Part shown: positions 43,925 to 57,603 of the stretch, piece by piece | Layout: every line of letters begins with the position of its first letter | How positions within the stretch are numbered: position 1 is the first letter of the stretch | IMG/VR virus record: IMGVR_UViG_3300047321_000445 | Span: 1-64,000 of that record | Reading direction: 5' to 3' (one strand) | Source: a virus | Length of the DNA: 64,000 nt | Translations under genes and position numbers: made by a program | Notes under the pieces: model-generated | What the model was told of the DNA's origin: nothing | Databases searched by the model: none | What the model saw: only the letters and a program-made list of their open reading frames with translations

Positions 43925-44674
43925 TCAGGCGCCGGGAGCCGCCTCGAACGTGTACTCGTAGCCGACGACCATGCGGCGGGGCAGGCACCATTCCCCGTAC
44001 TCGATGACCCCCTGCCCGTCCCACAGCCGGTGCGCGCCGGCCAGGATGGGCGCCCCGATCGGCAGGGCGAGGAAATTCGCTTCACGGGCGTCGGCGTCCC
44101 GGCCGTGGACGTCGTCGCGGCCGTTGGTGATGCGGCGTCCGGTGGCCTGCTGGATCCTCAGCAGCAGTCCGGGCGACGTGTGCGGGGACGTCGACAGCAG
44201 CTCGGGAACGCTCCCGGCGAGGTGCGCCGGGTACCAGGTGACGAAGAGCCCGGTTCGCTGCTTGCCCTTGCCGGTGTGCCACTGACGGCGCACCACCTGG
44301 TCGCCCTCGCCGAGGTCGAGGAGCTCGGCCACGTACTGCGGGGGTTTGACCATCTCGGCCGCTGTGACGATCATCGTCTCGCCCTCGGCGAGGACGCTGC
44401 CGGTGCGCAGGACGCGGGTGATCCGCTCGTAGGAGCTGGGGACGACCTCGGGTGCGTTCGCAACGAACGTGCCGCGGCGGCTGGTGGTGATGTAGCCCTC
44501 CACCTGGAGCTGGTCGATTGCCCGCCCGAGGGTGGCGATCGAGACGCCGTGCGACTCGGCCAGCTCTCGCTGTCCGGGCAGCTTGGCGCCCTCCTGATAA
44601 CCGTCCTCGCCGTCGAGGATGCTGCGTCGGATGTCGGCCGCTACGCGCATGTACGGGTGTTCGGTCTCGGGCAT
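43925..44674 (-). CDS. GntR/HutC (UTRA) repressor, KorSA/TraR-like
   Basis: PYMRVAADIRRSI...KLPGQRELAESHGVS..T...A...L..EGYI...RGTFV plus UTRA-like C-terminus. Confidence 0.9.
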   Translation of the reverse strand: MPETEHPYMRVAADIRRSILDGEDGYQEGAKLPGQRELAESHGVSIATLGRAIDQLQVEGYITTSRRGTFVANAPEVVPSSYERITRVLRTGSVLAEGETMIVTAAEMVKPPQYVAELLDLGEGDQVVRRQWHTGKGKQRTGLFVTWYPAHLAGSVPELLSTSPHTSPGLLLRIQQATGRRITNGRDDVHGRDADAREANFLALPIGAPILAGAHRLWDGQGVIEYGEWCLPRRMVVGYEYTFEAAPGA

Positions 44675-44688
44675 GGTCCTTCTCCTGT

Positions 44689-44800
44689 ATGTCCTAGGGC
44701 ACTGACGAGCGTACTAGGACACGCGTAATCCTGGGAGGGGGGAATGCGGGTGCACCCTGGTGAAGTGTCCTAGGTCACGCTATGGTCTGTCCTAGGACAC
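44689..44800. promoter_or_regulatory. four GTGTCCTAGGACAC-type operator sites
   Basis: copies at 44689, 44709, 44765, 44787 between GntR and the rSAM operon. Confidence 0.8.
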
Positions 44801-44858: not shown

Positions 44859-45227
44859 ATGACGAAGACCGTAGACACAGCGAGTGAGACCGCGCCCGTA
44901 GACGTCGCCACGATGCGCGAGGCCATCAGCCGGCTGCTCTTGGCTGAGGCTGAACTGCCCGCCAGCGAGGAGCTGGCGACACTGACCGTACAGCTGCGCG
45001 GGCACATGCAGCTGCTCATCCCGGAAGTCGAGGCAGCCGCCGCGAAGCTGCACAGGGACGACGTGGCCCGGTACTGCGCGCTCGCCTGCCTCGGCACGGC
45101 CCGCAACCGGCTCCAGGAGCGGCCGAACCCGAACCCCGGTGGAGACGTCGCGTACGCCCGGCGTCTGGCCCGCGCGCTCAACGCCCTCGTGGACCACAGC
45201 GAGAACCTGACCGCCCCGAGCTGCTGA
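44859..45227 (+). CDS. DUF6415-like protein
   Basis: PVDVATMR...L...L...LRGHMQLLIPEVE...LARALNAL.DH.E pattern. Confidence 0.6.
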   Translation: MTKTVDTASETAPVDVATMREAISRLLLAEAELPASEELATLTVQLRGHMQLLIPEVEAAAAKLHRDDVARYCALACLGTARNRLQERPNPNPGGDVAYARRLARALNALVDHSENLTAPSC

Positions 45228-45329
45228 CACCCACAGACCCCCGCCCTCGGGCCCCAGTCCATGGACAGGTCGAGCCCGGGGGCGGGTCGCACCATCGGAA
45301 GTCACCTGACACCCGAGGAGAAACACGCC

Positions 45330-46253
45330 ATGACGATCGCTCCCGAGGTTCCCGTCCGGCAGACAGTGCCGGAGTTCCTGGAGCTTGAGATCACCGGCCG
45401 CTGTCAGCTCAGCTGCGGCCACTGCTACGCGGAGTCGGGGCCGACCAACGGCCACGGCACCATGACCGGCGACGACTGGCGGCGGGTCATCACCGAGGCC
45501 GCCGCCCTCGGCACGAAGATCGTGCAGTTCATCGGTGGTGAGCCCACACTGTCGCCCGAATTCGCCGGGCTCGTCTGGCACGCCCTGGAAGCCGGCCTGC
45601 GGGTGCAGGTGTACAGCAACCTGTACCGGGTGCGCGCCGAGCACTGGGACCTGTTCGCGCACCCGCGCGTGAGCCTGGGGACGTCGTACTACTCCGACGT
45701 CCCGGACGAGCACGACGCGATCACCGGCCGGAAGGGCTCTCACGAGTCGACCAGGGCGAACATCGTGGAGGCCATGCGCCGGAACATCCCGGTGAAGGTC
45801 GGCATCGTCCACATGCGTGACGGGCAGCGCTCCGAGGAAGCCCGCGCCGAGATGGCCGCGCTCGGTGTGGCCCGGGTGCACATCGACCGGGTCCGTGCCG
45901 TCGGCAACGCCTCGACGGCGAAGACGCTGATCCCGTCCACGTCGGAGCTGTGCGGGCGGTGCGCGGACGGGAAGGCGGCAATCCTCCCTGACGGGAAGGT
46001 CGCCCCGTGTGTGCTGGGCCGGTTCCTGCCCGCCGGGGACGTCAAGTCTGGTTCCCTGGAGCAGGTGTTCACCGGGCAGCTGTGGGCGCAGGTCGCGGCG
46101 AGCATCCCGCGACAGCAGCGGACCGCCGGGTGCCTGCCGGACGAGGACTCGTGCCAGCCCGCGCCGCGGAACACCGCCCAGGGCTGCAACCCTGACAGCG
46201 ACGGTTCGGACTGCTCGCCGGCCGAGACCCCGGCCTGCGACCCCTCGTACTAG
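45330..46253 (+). CDS. radical SAM/SPASM-like protein with C-terminal CxP repeat tail
   Basis: CQLSCGHC, FIGGEPT, CGRC...ILPDGKVAPC; tail CLPDEDSCQP...CNPDSDGSDCSP...CDPSY. Confidence 0.9.
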   Translation: MTIAPEVPVRQTVPEFLELEITGRCQLSCGHCYAESGPTNGHGTMTGDDWRRVITEAAALGTKIVQFIGGEPTLSPEFAGLVWHALEAGLRVQVYSNLYRVRAEHWDLFAHPRVSLGTSYYSDVPDEHDAITGRKGSHESTRANIVEAMRRNIPVKVGIVHMRDGQRSEEARAEMAALGVARVHIDRVRAVGNASTAKTLIPSTSELCGRCADGKAAILPDGKVAPCVLGRFLPAGDVKSGSLEQVFTGQLWAQVAASIPRQQRTAGCLPDEDSCQPAPRNTAQGCNPDSDGSDCSPAETPACDPSY

Positions 46254-46264
46254 GAGACGCCCGG

Positions 46265-47395
46265 ATGGATTGGCAGACGCACGCACGGCGCCTCGCGGCC
46301 GATGTGGTCCGGCCCGAATCACGCTGGTACGAACCGCTCGCCAGCACGCCCCGGCATGTGTTCGTGCCGCGCTGGTGGGCGAACCGCGACGGAAGTTGGG
46401 AGCTGCGCGACGGTAGCGCCGACCCCGGCGCGTGGATGCGGGCCGCCTACGCGGACCGGACACTCGTGACCCGCATCGGCCCCGTGCACGCCGACCACGC
46501 CGAACCCGGCGCCACGGTCACGGAGGGGAAACCCACGTCCTCATCCACGCTGCCGGGCCTGGTGGTCACCATGTACCGGCACGCGGCCATAGCCGACGAC
46601 TCCCGGGTCCTGGTGACGACCGGCACCGGCTACGGCACGGCACTGCTGTGCCGACGACTGGGCGATGAGCGGGTGACGAGTGTGGACGTCGACCCGCATC
46701 TGGTGAAGGTCGCAGCGGAACGCCTCGATTCCATCGGGGTGCACCCGTACACAGCTGTCGTCGACATCACCCGGCACGATCTGGGGCGGCACGACCGGAT
46801 CGTGTCCACCGTGTCCGTACGAGCCGTGCCGGCCTCGTGGCTGGCCGCTCTGCGGCCCGGTGGGCGGCTCGTGACGACCATCGCGGGAACCGGGTTGATC
46901 CTCATTGCGGACAAGACCGAGGACGGCGGGGCTGTGGGCCGCATCGCCCCCGACGCGGCGGGGTTCATGCGCACTCGCCACGGCGACGACTATGACGACG
47001 CGACAGCGGAGGTGTGGAGGAAGGCGCAGTGGATCGACGGTGAGGAAGTGAGCACCAGCCGGTATCCGCTGTTGTACGTGCCGGACTCGTGGGAGGTGAT
47101 GTCGATGCTGGAGCTGAAGGTCCCGGGCATCGACCACCGGATCGTGCAGAACGGCAGCGAGCGGACGGTGTGGATGCTGCACGCCGACGGCTCCTGGGCC
47201 CGAGCGTACGCAGCGGAGTCCCTCGACTCGCCGACGGTGTATCAGGGCGGTCCCCGCCGCCTGTGGGACGAACTGGAGCGTGTCCGGAACCGGCTCAACC
47301 GTGAGGGCGGGCTCCCCTTGTACGGTGCCCGGGTCACCATCACCCCGGATGGCGTGACCACGCTGTCGCGAGGTTCCTGGTCCCTCACCCTGTAG
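46265..47395 (+). CDS. protein-L-isoaspartate O-methyltransferase (PIMT)-like RiPP methyltransferase
   Basis: PRHVFVP, TSSSTLP, GTGYG, VTSVDVD, DRIVST, LRPGGRLV, QGGPRRLWD. Confidence 0.85.
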   Translation: MDWQTHARRLAADVVRPESRWYEPLASTPRHVFVPRWWANRDGSWELRDGSADPGAWMRAAYADRTLVTRIGPVHADHAEPGATVTEGKPTSSSTLPGLVVTMYRHAAIADDSRVLVTTGTGYGTALLCRRLGDERVTSVDVDPHLVKVAAERLDSIGVHPYTAVVDITRHDLGRHDRIVSTVSVRAVPASWLAALRPGGRLVTTIAGTGLILIADKTEDGGAVGRIAPDAAGFMRTRHGDDYDDATAEVWRKAQWIDGEEVSTSRYPLLYVPDSWEVMSMLELKVPGIDHRIVQNGSERTVWMLHADGSWARAYAAESLDSPTVYQGGPRRLWDELERVRNRLNREGGLPLYGARVTITPDGVTTLSRGSWSLTL

Positions 47396-48650: not shown

Positions 48651-48684
48651 CGGCCCCGCACCCCATGCAGGGGGGTGCGGGGCC
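48651..48684. repeat. 34-bp hairpin direct repeat, copy 1
   Basis: cggccccgcaccccatgcaggggggtgcggggcc. Confidence 0.8.
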
Positions 48685-48792
48685 TTTCCCTTCTCCGTGA
48701 TTACTGGTGACCAGACTTGCAAATACGCTAGGACGTGTGTACTTTCGTGGTGAGGGGGCGGGTCCACCGCCCCCGACGCCGAGGGAGGACAC

Positions 48793-49068
48793 ATGGAGTC
48801 GATTCACATCCCCACCGAGGAGCGCCCTCGCGTGGGCGAGGACGTCACGTACAAGGTCGGCCGCCACACCGTGAGGGCCGTTGTCACCCGCCAGTTCGTG
48901 AACGAGGCGGAAGACGTGGGCGTCGTCGTCTACGGCGACCAGGTGGGGAGCGTCCACCCCGTGGCGCCCGCGCTGCTCAACGTGCAGGCGCCGGACCTCG
49001 ACAAGCTGCACGCCGACGCCCTCGTAGAGGACGAGCTGCGCGCCCTCCTCGACGAGATCGACCACTGA
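48793..49068 (+). CDS. hypothetical protein
   Basis: GGAGGA RBS; own promoter TTGCAA-N17-TACTTT at 48717. Confidence 0.75.
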   Translation: MESIHIPTEERPRVGEDVTYKVGRHTVRAVVTRQFVNEAEDVGVVVYGDQVGSVHPVAPALLNVQAPDLDKLHADALVEDELRALLDEIDH

Positions 49069-49087: not shown

Positions 49088-49121
49088 CGGCCCCGCACCC
49101 CATGCAGGGGGGTGCGGGGCC
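49088..49121. repeat. 34-bp hairpin direct repeat, copy 2
   Basis: identical to 48651..48684. Confidence 0.8.
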
Positions 49122-49135
49122 GTTCCCATTGTCGG

Positions 49136-50377
49136 CTACTCGTCGTCGGCCGCCGCCATGCCGCGCAGCAGGTCCACCACGGCCCGGCAGTCGCCCAACG
49201 CGCGGTGCTCGCCCCCGGCCAAGGGCTGCCATGCGTAGTCCCCGTGGTAGTCGGACCAGTCGCCGACCCATTCCGAGTACGGCAGCATCACGTCCTCCGA
49301 CCGCACCTCGGCGAGCCAGGCCGCGGCGGCCGCTGCCGGGTCCGGGTGGCCGGCCTGCCGGTAGTGGACCGTCAGCTCGTGCCGCAGCCGGCCGACGTCG
49401 AACGGCTCGTTGTAGATCAGGCAGCGGCGACCGTCCAACGCTGCGGTGAGCTGCGGCAGGAGAGTCGTGAACGACGGCGCCCCGGCCACCTTGTCGTCGG
49501 TGATGCCGTGCAGGTCGGACACGTCCGGGGGGATCGGCTCGCCCGGGTTGACGAGCGTGTCCAGCAGCACCTTCCCGCCCGTGCTGTAGACCCCGAGCTC
49601 TACGATCCGCGCCTCGTCGTGCAGGCCGGTGGTCTCGCAGTCCAGCACGGCCACGTCCGGGTCGTCGACCAGGGCCCGCGCCCAGTCCACGAGCTCGGCC
49701 ACACGCCGACGCCGCTCCTCGACCGCGCGCTCCTCGGCCTCCTCGTACTGCCGCTGCCGCTCGGCCCGCTCCAGCTCGTCGCGTACCTTGCACGGCGGAC
49801 ACCACACTGGCGTCCAATACCCGCGCTCGGCCCTCCCCGCGGCGATCTCCTCATCGGTGGCCGTGACCACCTCACAGTCCCGACCCGGGCACGTACGCCG
49901 CCATGCGGCCTCGGCTTCCTGCTCTGCCTGCTGGCGTAGCGCTTTGCGGATGCGGCAGTGCTCGCACGCCCCCCAGCCGTGCACGTCCTTCGCCAACGCC
50001 GAACCGGACTCACGGCGGCACCAATGGCAGGTCCGGGCCCGCCGCTCCTGCGCCTCCTGCTGCGCCCGCCTACGGCAGTCCTCGCAGCGCTGGTACACCA
50101 CATAGCCGCGGACCTCCCGGCACTCGGGGCAGGTACGCCGGGCCGTCATCGCCTGCTGCTGCTTCGCCGACAACGGCCGCATCGCCTCCGCCCCGGCCGG
50201 GTCGTACAGCGGGAACTCGCCCCACCCGTGACCGCGCCGGTACATCCGCAGGAAGCCCACGGGCTGTTGCCCCTCGGCCGGCTTGAGCCGCTGCGCCTTC
50301 AGCTGCGTCGTGGTCCGCAGATGGTCCGGGACGTCGCCGGACTTGTAGACGGGCAGGGCTTCCGATTCCGTGGTCAA
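49136..50377 (-). CDS. DEDDh 3'-5' exonuclease with N-terminal Zn-finger region
   Basis: VLDCETTG, YNEPFD, HRALGDC; multiple CxxC. Confidence 0.88.
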   Translation of the reverse strand: MTTESEALPVYKSGDVPDHLRTTTQLKAQRLKPAEGQQPVGFLRMYRRGHGWGEFPLYDPAGAEAMRPLSAKQQQAMTARRTCPECREVRGYVVYQRCEDCRRRAQQEAQERRARTCHWCRRESGSALAKDVHGWGACEHCRIRKALRQQAEQEAEAAWRRTCPGRDCEVVTATDEEIAAGRAERGYWTPVWCPPCKVRDELERAERQRQYEEAEERAVEERRRRVAELVDWARALVDDPDVAVLDCETTGLHDEARIVELGVYSTGGKVLLDTLVNPGEPIPPDVSDLHGITDDKVAGAPSFTTLLPQLTAALDGRRCLIYNEPFDVGRLRHELTVHYRQAGHPDPAAAAAAWLAEVRSEDVMLPYSEWVGDWSDYHGDYAWQPLAGGEHRALGDCRAVVDLLRGMAAADDE

Positions 50378-50483
50378 CGGGCACCTCCGAGCAGACTGAG
50401 GGGGGTCAGGGACCAAGCACAGCGCACGCCACTGACAACGCGCGGCAGGTCCCGCCCGGCTCGGGCGGGACCTGCCGGGATGC

Positions 50484-52852: not shown

Positions 52853-52888
52853 GTGTCCTAGGACAAGATACGTTCCGTCCTAGGACAT
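52853..52888. promoter_or_regulatory. two GTCCTAGGAC operators upstream of the transfer operon (a further copy at 52472)
   Basis: gtgtcctaggacaa and ccgtcctaggacat, 22 bp apart. Confidence 0.8.
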
Positions 52889-55479: not shown

Positions 55480-57603
55480 ATGGCCCGCGTCACCAGCACC
55501 ACCAACGGCAAGACCGAGCAGGTCAACACGGCGCAGGCCACGGACCTCGTGCCGGTCGGCAAGGGGGGTGTCGTCTCCCACCTGCTCGGCAAGGCACTGC
55601 CGTACGCCTCTCCGTGGCTCGGCGCCGGTGCACTCCCGCCGCTCGCCGGGCTCGCCACGAACACCATGTGGGGCGACACCGCCGTCCACGCCGGGTTCGC
55701 CTCCGCAGGGCTCGGGATCGGCGGAGCCGTCCTCTCCGCTGTGACCTGGCAGGTTGCCGGGGGGAACAACAAGTTCCGTCGCTTCCGGCGCGCCCAGGCC
55801 ACCGCGAGCGTGGCGGCGGGGATGGGCTGGCTGACGGCCGCGACCTCGGCCGGCCCGTTCGGCCACCCCATGATCGACCTGTGGCTGATGGGGGGCGGCC
55901 TGTTCGCCGCCTCCTGGAACATCCGGTCGGTCATGCGGAACGCCCACGACGAGACTGAGCAGGTCGAGGGCAAGAGCGGACTGGGCAAGATCGCTGAGGC
56001 GATCGGGCTGGAGAAGGTGAAGGTCAGGGACGCCAAGGGCAACGGCAAGGGCATGGTGAAGGCGGCCATCGAGGTCGCTCCCGGGGCGACCCTGGACGAC
56101 GTGCAGGCGGCTCTCCCGAAGCTGACCGCGGCCCTGCACGTCCCCGGCTCCGGTGCCACCGTCACCAAGGACCTGGAAAACGCTGGTGAGGGCGTCATCA
56201 ACCTGCGTGTCGCAGACCTGCTGAAGGACGGAGTCGAGTTCATACCGCCCATCCGGCTGGGCATGCTGCCGAACGAACCGCTGCCGCTCGGCCTGTACGC
56301 GGACGGCGAAGAGTTCATCATCAACCCGTTCGACGCCGAGATCCTCCAGCACCTGCTGGTCATGGGCGTCACCGGCGCAGGCAAGAGCGAGTTCGCCCGC
56401 GGCCTGCTCGCCCACCTGATGACCCGCCGCAAGATGACCGTGATGGTCGTCGACACCGCCAAGGGCCGTCAGTCCATGGGGCACATTGCCCACGGGGTGG
56501 ACTGGTTCGTCACCACCACCCGCGAGGCAAAGCACCTGCTCAAGGCCCTGCCCGGGGCCATCCAGGCACGCGGCGACGTCCTCGCGGAAGAGGGCCTGGA
56601 CCAGTGGACACCCAAGTCCAGGCTGAACGCCATGGTGGTCTGGGTCGAAGAGGCCGCCGACCTCGCCGACTTCGCCGAGCTGGACGAGATCGCCCGCAAG
56701 GCGCGCTCGGTCGGCATCTGGCTGGTGATCTCGCTCCAGCGCGCGACCTGGACGAACGTGTCCACCGACGTCCGCGCCAACCTCCAGGCGTCCGCGTGCT
56801 TCGGCGTGGACACCGCAGGGGACGCCGGATTCGGCCTGCCCGCCCGCGTGACCGACGCAGGCGCCATCCCGGACTGGGGCGCCACCCGACCCGGCTACGC
56901 CTTCGCCACCGGCATGGGAATCCCCGATAACCGCTGGACGATGGAGTGGCGCTCGGGCCTGACCGACCGGGAGTTCCTGTCCGCGCTGGTCACGGCCGCA
57001 ACACCGTTCCGTGACCCGCTGGACGACACGACCGCGAAGGCCCTGGGTTTGGCGTACGCGCAGCGCACCCGCCCGGGCACGAACCGGATGAACATGCAGG
57101 CCAGCGAGGCGCAGGAGGCCAGCTCCGCTCAGCAGCTGCTGGCCGCCGCGCACGTGCTGGGCGAGGCACTGGAGGACGCCGGAGTGGACCTGAACAGTCT
57201 GCCCACGGGCAGCGACGACGAGCGCATCGAGGTGGAGATGGAGGACGCATACGCCGAGGTCATGGGCATGATCCCGGACGATCCGGAGCCGGGCGCGCCG
57301 TACGCGAACCTGGATCTGGACGACGACATGCCCGAAGACACCGACACCGGGATGGAGTTCGCGGAGCCCGAGAAGCTTCCGCCTGCGGACGCCCGGCGCC
57401 TGCTGCACGAGCAGCTGCACGAGTGGGCGCAGCGGGACCGGCTCACGTTCCAGCCTGCGGACCTGGCCCCGGTCACGGTCGCAGCCGGCCGGAAGCGGCC
57501 GTGGCTCCAGGGCGAGTTGAAGCGGCTGGTGGAGGCGGGTGTGCTGCGGCACGACTCGCACGGCGAGTACGACATCGTCCAGTCGCCGCTTGTGCCCGCA
57601 TAG
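55480..57603 (+). CDS. traB: FtsK/SpoIIIE-type conjugative DNA translocase TraB
   Basis: N-terminal TMs, Walker A GVTGAGKS, Walker B VWVEEA, ISLQR, C-terminal wHTH. Confidence 0.9.
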   Translation: MARVTSTTNGKTEQVNTAQATDLVPVGKGGVVSHLLGKALPYASPWLGAGALPPLAGLATNTMWGDTAVHAGFASAGLGIGGAVLSAVTWQVAGGNNKFRRFRRAQATASVAAGMGWLTAATSAGPFGHPMIDLWLMGGGLFAASWNIRSVMRNAHDETEQVEGKSGLGKIAEAIGLEKVKVRDAKGNGKGMVKAAIEVAPGATLDDVQAALPKLTAALHVPGSGATVTKDLENAGEGVINLRVADLLKDGVEFIPPIRLGMLPNEPLPLGLYADGEEFIINPFDAEILQHLLVMGVTGAGKSEFARGLLAHLMTRRKMTVMVVDTAKGRQSMGHIAHGVDWFVTTTREAKHLLKALPGAIQARGDVLAEEGLDQWTPKSRLNAMVVWVEEAADLADFAELDEIARKARSVGIWLVISLQRATWTNVSTDVRANLQASACFGVDTAGDAGFGLPARVTDAGAIPDWGATRPGYAFATGMGIPDNRWTMEWRSGLTDREFLSALVTAATPFRDPLDDTTAKALGLAYAQRTRPGTNRMNMQASEAQEASSAQQLLAAAHVLGEALEDAGVDLNSLPTGSDDERIEVEMEDAYAEVMGMIPDDPEPGAPYANLDLDDDMPEDTDTGMEFAEPEKLPPADARRLLHEQLHEWAQRDRLTFQPADLAPVTVAAGRKRPWLQGELKRLVEAGVLRHDSHGEYDIVQSPLVPA

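Follow-up and report, generated by a model that had tools for sequence, protein, structure and literature searches.

The window analysed here, a stretch of 64,000 nucleotides (positions 1 to 64,000 of the IMG/VR record IMGVR_UViG_3300047321_000445, which is 97,310 bases long and classed as viral), has a G+C content of 70-73% and carries a two-gene cassette whose products are an enzyme of the radical S-adenosylmethionine (rSAM) type and a methyltransferase that resembles protein isoaspartyl methyltransferases (PIMTs). The rSAM enzyme ends in a tail of repeated Cys-x-Pro (CxP) units. Comparison of the family points, at evenly balanced confidence, to this C-terminal tail as the substrate of the cassette, so that enzyme and substrate would be fused in one polypeptide. 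A previous sequence-only reading of this DNA had proposed an enzyme-precursor fusion with the methyltransferase acting on the tail. The hypervariable length of the tail, the retention of its CxP units, its predicted disorder, the lack of a leader-recognition domain and of a separate precursor, and the way in which acidic loops in the tail track the methyltransferase all speak for that proposal, the chemical part of which stays a candidate.

The gene pair itself has been reported. PIMT homologs associated with ribosomally made peptides that are modified after translation (RiPPs), homologs that were named PAMTs, methylate L-Asp to yield aspartimide or isoaspartate (Lee et al., Adv Sci 2023, PMC10787088). 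According to the text and the Fig. S13 legend of that paper, 249 two-gene clusters of an rSAM gene and a PAMT gene occur among 9,408 PAMTs (Fig. S13b), no precursor or substrate gene was found near them, and a tail of the rSAM protein is not mentioned. The architecture described there for these orphan clusters of actinomycetes, an rSAM gene beside that of a PIMT-like O-methyltransferase extended at its C-terminus, is the same as that of the window cassette, which almost certainly belongs to this cluster type. The locus had been put forward as possibly a new RiPP type; this has to be corrected for the earlier report of the pair as an orphan cluster type, the substrate of which the paper leaves open. 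The CxP rule, the disorder of the tail, the variation in unit number and the link between acidic loops and the methyltransferase are new here. Nothing relevant on CxP with radical SAM in Streptomyces, or on fused or self-modifying rSAM precursors, was found in the literature searched, within which the fusion hypothesis is new. The cassette comprises the following features:

45330-46253, plus strand: rSAM enzyme of 307 residues, ending in a twitch-type domain and then a CxP tail (Pfam Radical_SAM; SkfB as best solved relative; modelled core).
45402-45425, plus strand: CX3CX2C radical SAM cluster motif (C25, C29, C32), invariant in 112 homologs.
45951-46010, plus strand: twitch half-motif CxxC-X10-G-X4-C (C208, C211, G222, C227), invariant in 112 homologs and aligned with the hairpin of SkfB and PqqE.
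46110-46250, plus strand: C-terminal tail of residues 261-307, apparently disordered and containing five CxP units (model confidence, CxP statistics, D-[GSTN] loops).
46265-47395, plus strand: PIMT-like peptide/protein L-aspartyl O-methyltransferase of the PAMT type with a C-terminal extension (Pfam PCMT, TIGR04188, 1DL5, invariant SAM-site residues).

The open reading frame (ORF) of the rSAM enzyme was listed as 45261-46253. Translation most likely starts at the ATG at 45330, giving 307 residues, because a GAGGAG stretch is located 8-13 nt upstream and the resulting N-terminus, MTIAPE, is common to the homologs. The protein matches Pfam Radical_SAM (PF04055) at 4.5e-17, and both the C25-x3-C29-x2-C32 motif, which is invariant in 112 homologs, and the confident barrel predicted by AlphaFold2 (AF2) place it in the radical SAM superfamily. 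The AF2 model has a mean predicted local distance difference test score (pLDDT) of 88, with the core above 94 when the 112-sequence alignment was used and above 90 in both models that were built. In the alignment near residues 25-32, many homologs read C-x3-C-x3-C (for example CQLTCSSHC) in place of the canonical C-x3-C-x2-C of the window, an unusual variation of the cluster motif inside one family.

Downstream of the barrel, all residues of the half-motif C208-x2-C211-X10-G222-X4-C227 are invariant in the same 112 homologs. This segment is modelled as a hairpin (E215-218/E223-225) followed by helices at 243-258, as expected of a twitch domain, the truncated SPASM of the SkfB, BtrN and MoaA type, with a predicted auxiliary cluster. 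The second SPASM half (CX2CX5CX3C) was not found in the rSAM protein, where CxP units spaced mostly 4-9 residues apart are located instead. Only the first half of a SPASM domain of the PF13186/TIGR04085 type, with its seven Cys and two auxiliary clusters, is thus present, and the Pfam SPASM match is marginal (22.7 bits against a cut-off of 21.5). The region had previously been described as SPASM/twitch-like, of which the twitch half-motif is retained and the SPASM assignment is dropped, its second half being missing.

The best solved relative of the enzyme is SkfB, the RiPP maturase that forms the thioethers of sporulation killing factor, both with a family profile (hmmsearch, 1.3e-28) and with the AF2 model in Foldseek (1.4e-16), where SuiB, EpeE/YydG, BlsE, PqqE, CteB and the anaerobic sulfatase-maturating enzyme (anSME) follow. 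SkfB and these further structural relatives nearly all act on peptides. No N-terminal RiPP recognition element (RRE), the leader-recognition domain, was found in the AF2 model or in the profile alignment to SkfB, since the core begins at about residue 16 and the match begins at SkfB residue 112 (query profile residue 19). The two hallmarks of leader-recognising RiPP maturases of the rSAM type, an N-terminal RRE and a separate precursor gene, are therefore both missing, and on sequence and model the enzyme looks like a peptide maturase without the means to recruit a free peptide. A known anti-phage system was also considered and rejected, as PADLOC returned only generic matches, of the rSAM core to pVip and of a Rossmann fold, weakly, to mad2.

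The first tail Cys, C268, is encoded at 46131. Five CxP units fall within the final 40 residues of the protein (46131-46250), in agreement with the count made from the sequence alone. An acidic loop, PDSDGSD, lies between the third and the fourth unit. Approximately 1,750 homologs of the rSAM enzyme are present in a set of 5.8 billion proteins, and a 50%-identity library holds 451 representatives at E <1e-30. CxP statistics were derived from 235 homologs with an intact twitch motif and 35-80% identity. In these proteins Pro occupies the +2 position of 1357 of 1399 tail Cys (97%), in tails of which Pro makes up 17% of the residues; in the core, CxP is formed by 22 of 1587 Cys (1.4%). The CC, CxC and CxxC patterns are essentially absent from the tails. 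A tail has between 0 and 55 CxP units, most often 5, and approximately 5% of the homologs have zero or one unit, which indicates that the tail Cys are dispensable for the fold. Tandem duplication of whole units is evident in P0052, with three copies of an 18-residue unit, and in P0129, with about eleven copies of an 11-residue unit (ERCHPxVExSA). Among the extreme tails (P0163, P0216, P0198, P0131 and P0129), the largest count is 55 CxP and the longest protein, P0163, has 645 residues.

In close relatives the final three units hardly vary from the pattern C-x-P-x-D-[SG]-x-D-C-x-P-[AS]-x-T-x-A-C-x-P-x-Y, and units upstream of them are gained and lost; conservation at the tail's end exceeds that of much of the rSAM protein. 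An alignment of homologs for tail conservation and repeat number, which the sequence-only reading had proposed as a check, was made: the CxP unit is strictly kept, and tail length and repeat number are hypervariable, in a variable part where the alignments are themselves unreliable. The tail looks disordered in the AF2 models. Its pLDDT is 42-65 with the broad 112-sequence alignment and 28-49 with a closer alignment of 54 sequences, a run meant to give tail-core contacts a fairer chance, in which the tail still stayed below 50. A reading of CxP as the target motif of anSME was rejected. Arg is not enriched at the +4 position and CxP is therefore not the sulfatase motif: among 1365 CxP units, +4 is dominated by E, C, D, P and Y, Arg is outside the six commonest residues, and a full SPASM domain is lacking.

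The neighbourhood of the pair was compared in 80 genome loci, mostly from Streptomyces, with Kitasatospora, Streptacidiphilus, Planomonospora and Nonomuraea also represented. The methyltransferase gene lies directly downstream of the rSAM gene in 77 of them, and the flanks of the pair are not conserved. Clustering of the flanking ORFs (at least 30 residues long and within 3.5 kb of the pair, so that shorter precursors are invisible) returned nothing besides the pair in more than 18 of the 80 loci. Genes that recur nearby encode WhiJ-like HTH_31-DUF5753 regulators, an anti-sigma-like HATPase_c_2 protein and DUF6415. A DUF397 gene is located near the pair on one plasmid; the cysimiditide paper describes helix-turn-helix and DUF397 regulators near cysimiditide clusters too. 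The DUF6415 protein was detected by tblastn in 12 of the 80 loci, directly upstream of the rSAM gene in 11, and forms an 11-locus family in separate clustering; it was rejected as an obligate partner on its presence in 12 loci only. In the window the pair is preceded by three features:

43925-44674, minus strand: GntR/UTRA-family regulator, divergent from the cassette (Pfam GntR 3.8e-12, UTRA 2e-8).
44690-44800, no strand assigned: operator-like palindromes of the TGTCCTAGGACA type within the cassette's promoter region (sequence reading).
44859-45227, plus strand: DUF6415 protein, first gene of the apparent operon (Pfam DUF6415 5.4e-30).

A separate precursor was sought in two further ways. 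In a six-frame scan of approximately 120 loci, no other ORF carried the CxP/acidic pattern of the tail, and other frames with at least three CxP were Arg/Pro-rich off-frame reads. The tail as query against all shorter proteins of the 5.8-billion set gave two matches, both apparent fragments. Locus clustering, six-frame scan and short-protein search thus bear out the sequence-only reading, which had seen no separate precursor ORF and had named the discovery of one as grounds for giving up the fusion; none was found. Split forms, in which a tail-less enzyme would be accompanied by a separate CxP peptide, provided no convincing case among the loci and proteins looked at: two candidate loci (L086 and L101) look like pseudogenes, and an 87-residue candidate for a stand-alone tail (P0271) looks like a fragment of a long-tail homolog.

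A homolog of 44% identity is encoded in a Mycobacterium abscessus prophage, as gene 78 of Mycobacterium phage prophi68-1 (L123:2071-2958), adjoining the integrase. An in-frame TGA (2860-2862) immediately precedes its CxP tail, which continues in frame for 31 more codons. This TGA stands before Gly-Pro and may occupy the Cys position of a unit, and the same TGA-bearing sequence is present in prophiGD04-1. It could represent a nonsense mutation, read-through or recoding.

The pair is found on 28 plasmid records, 22 of them from Streptomyces, and on several prophage-like IMG/VR contigs. In Streptomyces sp. NBC_00989 the cassette is present in both terminal inverted repeats of the linear chromosome (11.95 Mb; loci L056 and L057), approximately 34 kb from the ends. 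Because the pair moves as a two-gene unit by way of plasmids, chromosome ends and prophage-like elements, a self-contained function is expected of it.

The methyltransferase ORF (46265-47395, 376 residues) starts 11 nt past the rSAM stop codon. Pfam PCMT matches residues 97-221, and the best match in the PDB is the T. maritima PIMT (1DL5), which the text of PMC10787088 places in the same clade as the PAMTs. The NCBIfam profile TIGR04188 ('ATP-grasp peptide maturase system methyltransferase'), which models the methyltransferase of graspetide systems, aligns from position 2 to 361 of its 363 positions with 260.7 bits, below the cut-off of 380, and no ATP-grasp gene is present in the neighbourhood; judged by this profile, the protein is a member of a related yet distinct subfamily. 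Motif I reads VLVTTGTGYG and is atypical, as the sequence-only reading had remarked in quoting VLVTTGTGY. In 54 methyltransferase homologs no variation is seen at L116, G120, G122, Y123 and the ribose-binding D141/D143, which identifies this motif I as a family trait and not as decay. With a PIMT-like Rossmann domain, an intact SAM site and a C-terminal extension of more than 100 residues, the protein has the features of a PAMT and by these sequence features is an intact methyltransferase of the peptide-modifying type.

More distant family members, with and without a downstream methyltransferase, came to light when 401 actinomycete genomes were sampled. Between their CxP units, 84 of 84 methyltransferase-linked tails carry one or more D-[GSTN] (mean 1.8), compared with 4 of 13 unlinked tails. 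The starred branches in a tree of the catalytic core require that linkage to the methyltransferase changed no fewer than 4-5 times. Within one mixed clade, the linked tails contain CxPDD[ST] or CxPDND (L093, L095, L100 and L103), whereas the unlinked tails are Lys-rich (L112 and L113). What often follows the unlinked members is a different pair, consisting of an ATPase of the AAA_21 (ABC/AbiEii-like) type and a phosphotransferase that is APH-like (kinase-like). Such sister cassettes, which have a CxP tail and no methyltransferase, include L106:8724-10498, L107:8887-10457, L108 and L114:6078-7845, and the genome of L114 contains both cassette types approximately 8 kb apart. From this comparison, the CxP tail goes with the rSAM enzyme and the acidic loop with the methyltransferase.

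In related enzymes with three conserved twitch Cys, one iron of the auxiliary cluster can stay accessible to substrate, for which MoaA is the standard three-Cys example, and in a structure of CteB with peptide a substrate Cys reportedly contacts an auxiliary cluster. If the tail is the substrate, the three conserved twitch Cys of the SkfB-like core would bind an auxiliary Fe-S cluster in which one iron site is open, and a CxP Cys from the tail of the same molecule or of a neighbouring copy would bind at or near this site. Radical chemistry would then act on the CxP units, with Cys-to-carbon thioether crosslinks as the likeliest outcome and Cys oxidation as a weaker alternative. Crosslinking, or metal binding by the same Cys, would pin the acidic stretch C-N-P-D-S-D-G-S-D-C into a small loop. 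The loop would present Asp-Gly or Asp-Ser to the adjacent PAMT, which would methylate an Asp of it, and the ester would collapse to aspartimide or isoaspartate, as in other PAMT systems. Characterised PAMTs need their Asp in such a ring or in a hairpin anchored by Cys and metal (PMC10787088; bioRxiv 10.1101/2024.10.02.616296). An RRE would be unnecessary in such an arrangement because the substrate is tethered.

Several observations weigh against the tail as substrate. The final three CxP Cys (C286, C295 and C303) are nearly invariant in the methyltransferase-linked clade and could serve as the fourth ligand of the auxiliary cluster or as a metal site, and the low pLDDT is compatible with a tail that becomes ordered upon cofactor binding. 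Two of the four unlinked tails with a D-[GSTN], those of L052 and L082, are acidic even so; these loci group within the methyltransferase-linked clade, as if their methyltransferase had been lost or disrupted recently. The core tree came from a quick search and has many unresolved forks, so few independent contrasts stand behind the link between loop and methyltransferase. The DUF6415 gene lies upstream here and in a minority of loci and may be a partner. The cassette contains no protease or exporter, which leaves release of a peptide unsupported.

Four other explanations of the tail were weighed against these data. The tail may be an appendage for cofactor or metal, either as the fourth ligand of the twitch cluster or as an Fe-S or metal reservoir like the His/Cys-rich tails of HypB, UreE or SlyD, with both enzymes acting elsewhere. 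This main rival is unlikely but deserves serious consideration: the three core twitch Cys could have their cluster completed by the near-invariant C286, C295 and C303, metal-handling tails elsewhere are also disordered and variable in length, and AF2 is blind to cofactors. However, the strict Pro at +2 (97% of 1399 Cys), with CC, CxC and CxxC essentially absent, corresponds to no known Fe-S or metallothionein pattern, and a range of 0-55 units with tandem duplication of whole units fits a structural ligand set poorly. A ligand role also leaves unexplained why acidic D-[GSTN] loops track the methyltransferase and why an RRE-less enzyme has no substrate gene nearby. On a hybrid explanation, which we regard as rather improbable, the methyltransferase alone would use the tail as its substrate. 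A hairpin held by Cys and metal (Zn or Fe-S) would present the Asp loop as in cysimiditides (type II pamtides), and the aspartimide or isoaspartate would tune or switch the rSAM enzyme, whose radical chemistry would target something else. A Cys4-metal hairpin whose loop holds the Asp is required in type II pamtides and cysimiditides, and an Asp-Gly or Asp-Ser loop between two CxP Cys is present in 84 of 84 methyltransferase-linked tails. The text of PMC10787088 also offers a precedent in the FHA-VWA clusters, where a PAMT is proposed to modify a disordered region of the neighbouring protein. The window tail nevertheless lacks the CxxCxGxG zinc-ribbon motif of cysimiditides, and the sister cassettes keep their CxP tails although they have no methyltransferase, from which it follows that the CxP unit must matter to the rSAM enzyme itself.

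A conventional substrate might instead be encoded elsewhere, or be too short or too variable to be detected, with DUF6415 or a host or element protein among the candidates and the tail incidental. Short hypervariable precursors are easily missed by BLAST clustering with an ORF floor of 30 residues, DUF6415 is directly upstream here and in 11 of 80 loci, and WhiJ/BldB-type regulators and an anti-sigma-like ATPase recur nearby. These points are offset by the conservation of nothing beyond the pair in more than 18 of 80 loci, by the movement of the pair as a two-gene unit whose function should be self-contained, and by the absence of an obvious route by which an RRE-less enzyme would recruit a free peptide; the text of PMC10787088 reports no candidate either. 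A separate substrate thus appears slightly less probable again than the hybrid. That the tail is meaningless low-complexity sequence and the adjacency of the two genes fortuitous is scarcely credible. High-GC genomes do yield Pro/Ala/Gly-rich low-complexity ends, but in 235 homologs of 35-80% identity the CxP rule covers 97% of the tail Cys, the adjacency is kept in 77 of 80 loci from several actinomycete genera, and much of the protein is less conserved than the tail's end.

The two-gene cassette of the window is carried by a mobile element of Streptomyces. The palindromes at 44690-44800 stand ahead of the DUF6415, rSAM and methyltransferase genes, and a related copy at 52853-52887 (direct-repeat family D4, 35 nt, 83% identity) lies ahead of a DUF2637 gene and, after it, an FtsK/TraB-like gene (55480-57603). 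The presence of palindrome copies both at the cassette and ahead of the DUF2637 and FtsK/TraB-like genes marks the cassette as cargo of a conjugative element. The cassette may be regulated together with conjugative transfer, and the arrangement suggests that the divergent GntR protein is the regulator of both. Beyond the cassette, two 40-nt copies of 98% identity (48651-48690 and 49088-49127) flank a small ORF (48793-49068), and each forms a GC-rich hairpin (CGGCCCCGCACCCC...GGGGTGCGGGGCC). A DEDDh/RNase T-type exonuclease whose long N-terminal region is rich in Cys is encoded on the minus strand at 49136-50416; it matches the PADLOC models DEDDh and PDC-S48, the latter a candidate defence system.

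The fusion of enzyme and substrate would offer a testable answer to the question raised in 2023 by the 249 orphan rSAM and PAMT clusters, namely that the substrate is the enzyme's own tail. If true, it would add a radical SAM example to a very short list of enzyme-precursor fusions, establish Cys-x-Pro as a new recognition unit, explain how a peptide-modifying rSAM enzyme works without a leader-recognition domain, and widen the reach of the rule that a PAMT requires its Asp loop to be constrained. A wider proposal is put forward tentatively, at somewhat less than even confidence. The enzyme would be the first rSAM enzyme to carry its own multi-unit substrate, and its product would be either a new class of ribosomal natural product or a self-modified protein built of 3 to >50 Cys-x-Pro units. 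Interchangeable second enzymes would decorate the loops (the Asp methyltransferase here, an ATPase with a kinase-like protein in the sister clade), and the system would be spread by conjugative plasmids and prophage-like elements of actinomycetes. That the cassette is carried on plasmids, at chromosome ends and within prophage-like elements is a hint that it may serve competition or the biology of its element.

With pamtides/imiditides and cysimiditides, whose defining modification is aspartimide or isoaspartate, the cassette has in common a methyltransferase of the PAMT type, a candidate Asp that precedes Gly or Ser and lies between cysteines much as in the Cys-anchored hairpin of type II pamtides, and similar regulators nearby. 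It differs from pamtides and cysimiditides in that no separate precursor gene and no CxxCxGxG zinc ribbon are present, and in that it includes an rSAM enzyme, which itself bears the candidate substrate; the conserved Asp, which in pamtides and imiditides belongs to a separate small precursor, appears here as Asp-[GS] inside the rSAM tail. SkfB and the synthases of sactipeptides and ranthipeptides (CteB, AlbA and PapB) have a similar rSAM core with a twitch-type domain and act on Cys-rich substrates, and the substrate of freyrasin-type ranthipeptides is likewise rich in Asp. Unlike the SkfB-type synthases, the cassette has no RRE and no leader-core precursor, its unit is CxP rather than CxxxD or a similar motif, and its chemistry is predicted. 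The anSME enzymes, which recognise C/S-x-P-x-R, belong to the same structural neighbourhood as the rSAM enzyme, and their target Cys also has Pro at +2. The Arg at +4 is absent here, however, a twitch half replaces the full SPASM domain with its two auxiliary clusters, and the substrate of anSME is a separate protein. The borosins (OphMA) are built around an N-methyltransferase in place of an rSAM enzyme, act in trans within a dimer and have a dedicated release protease, of which none was seen in the cassette. The logic that we infer for the cassette is nevertheless shared with them, namely that an enzyme takes its own C-terminal extension as its substrate.

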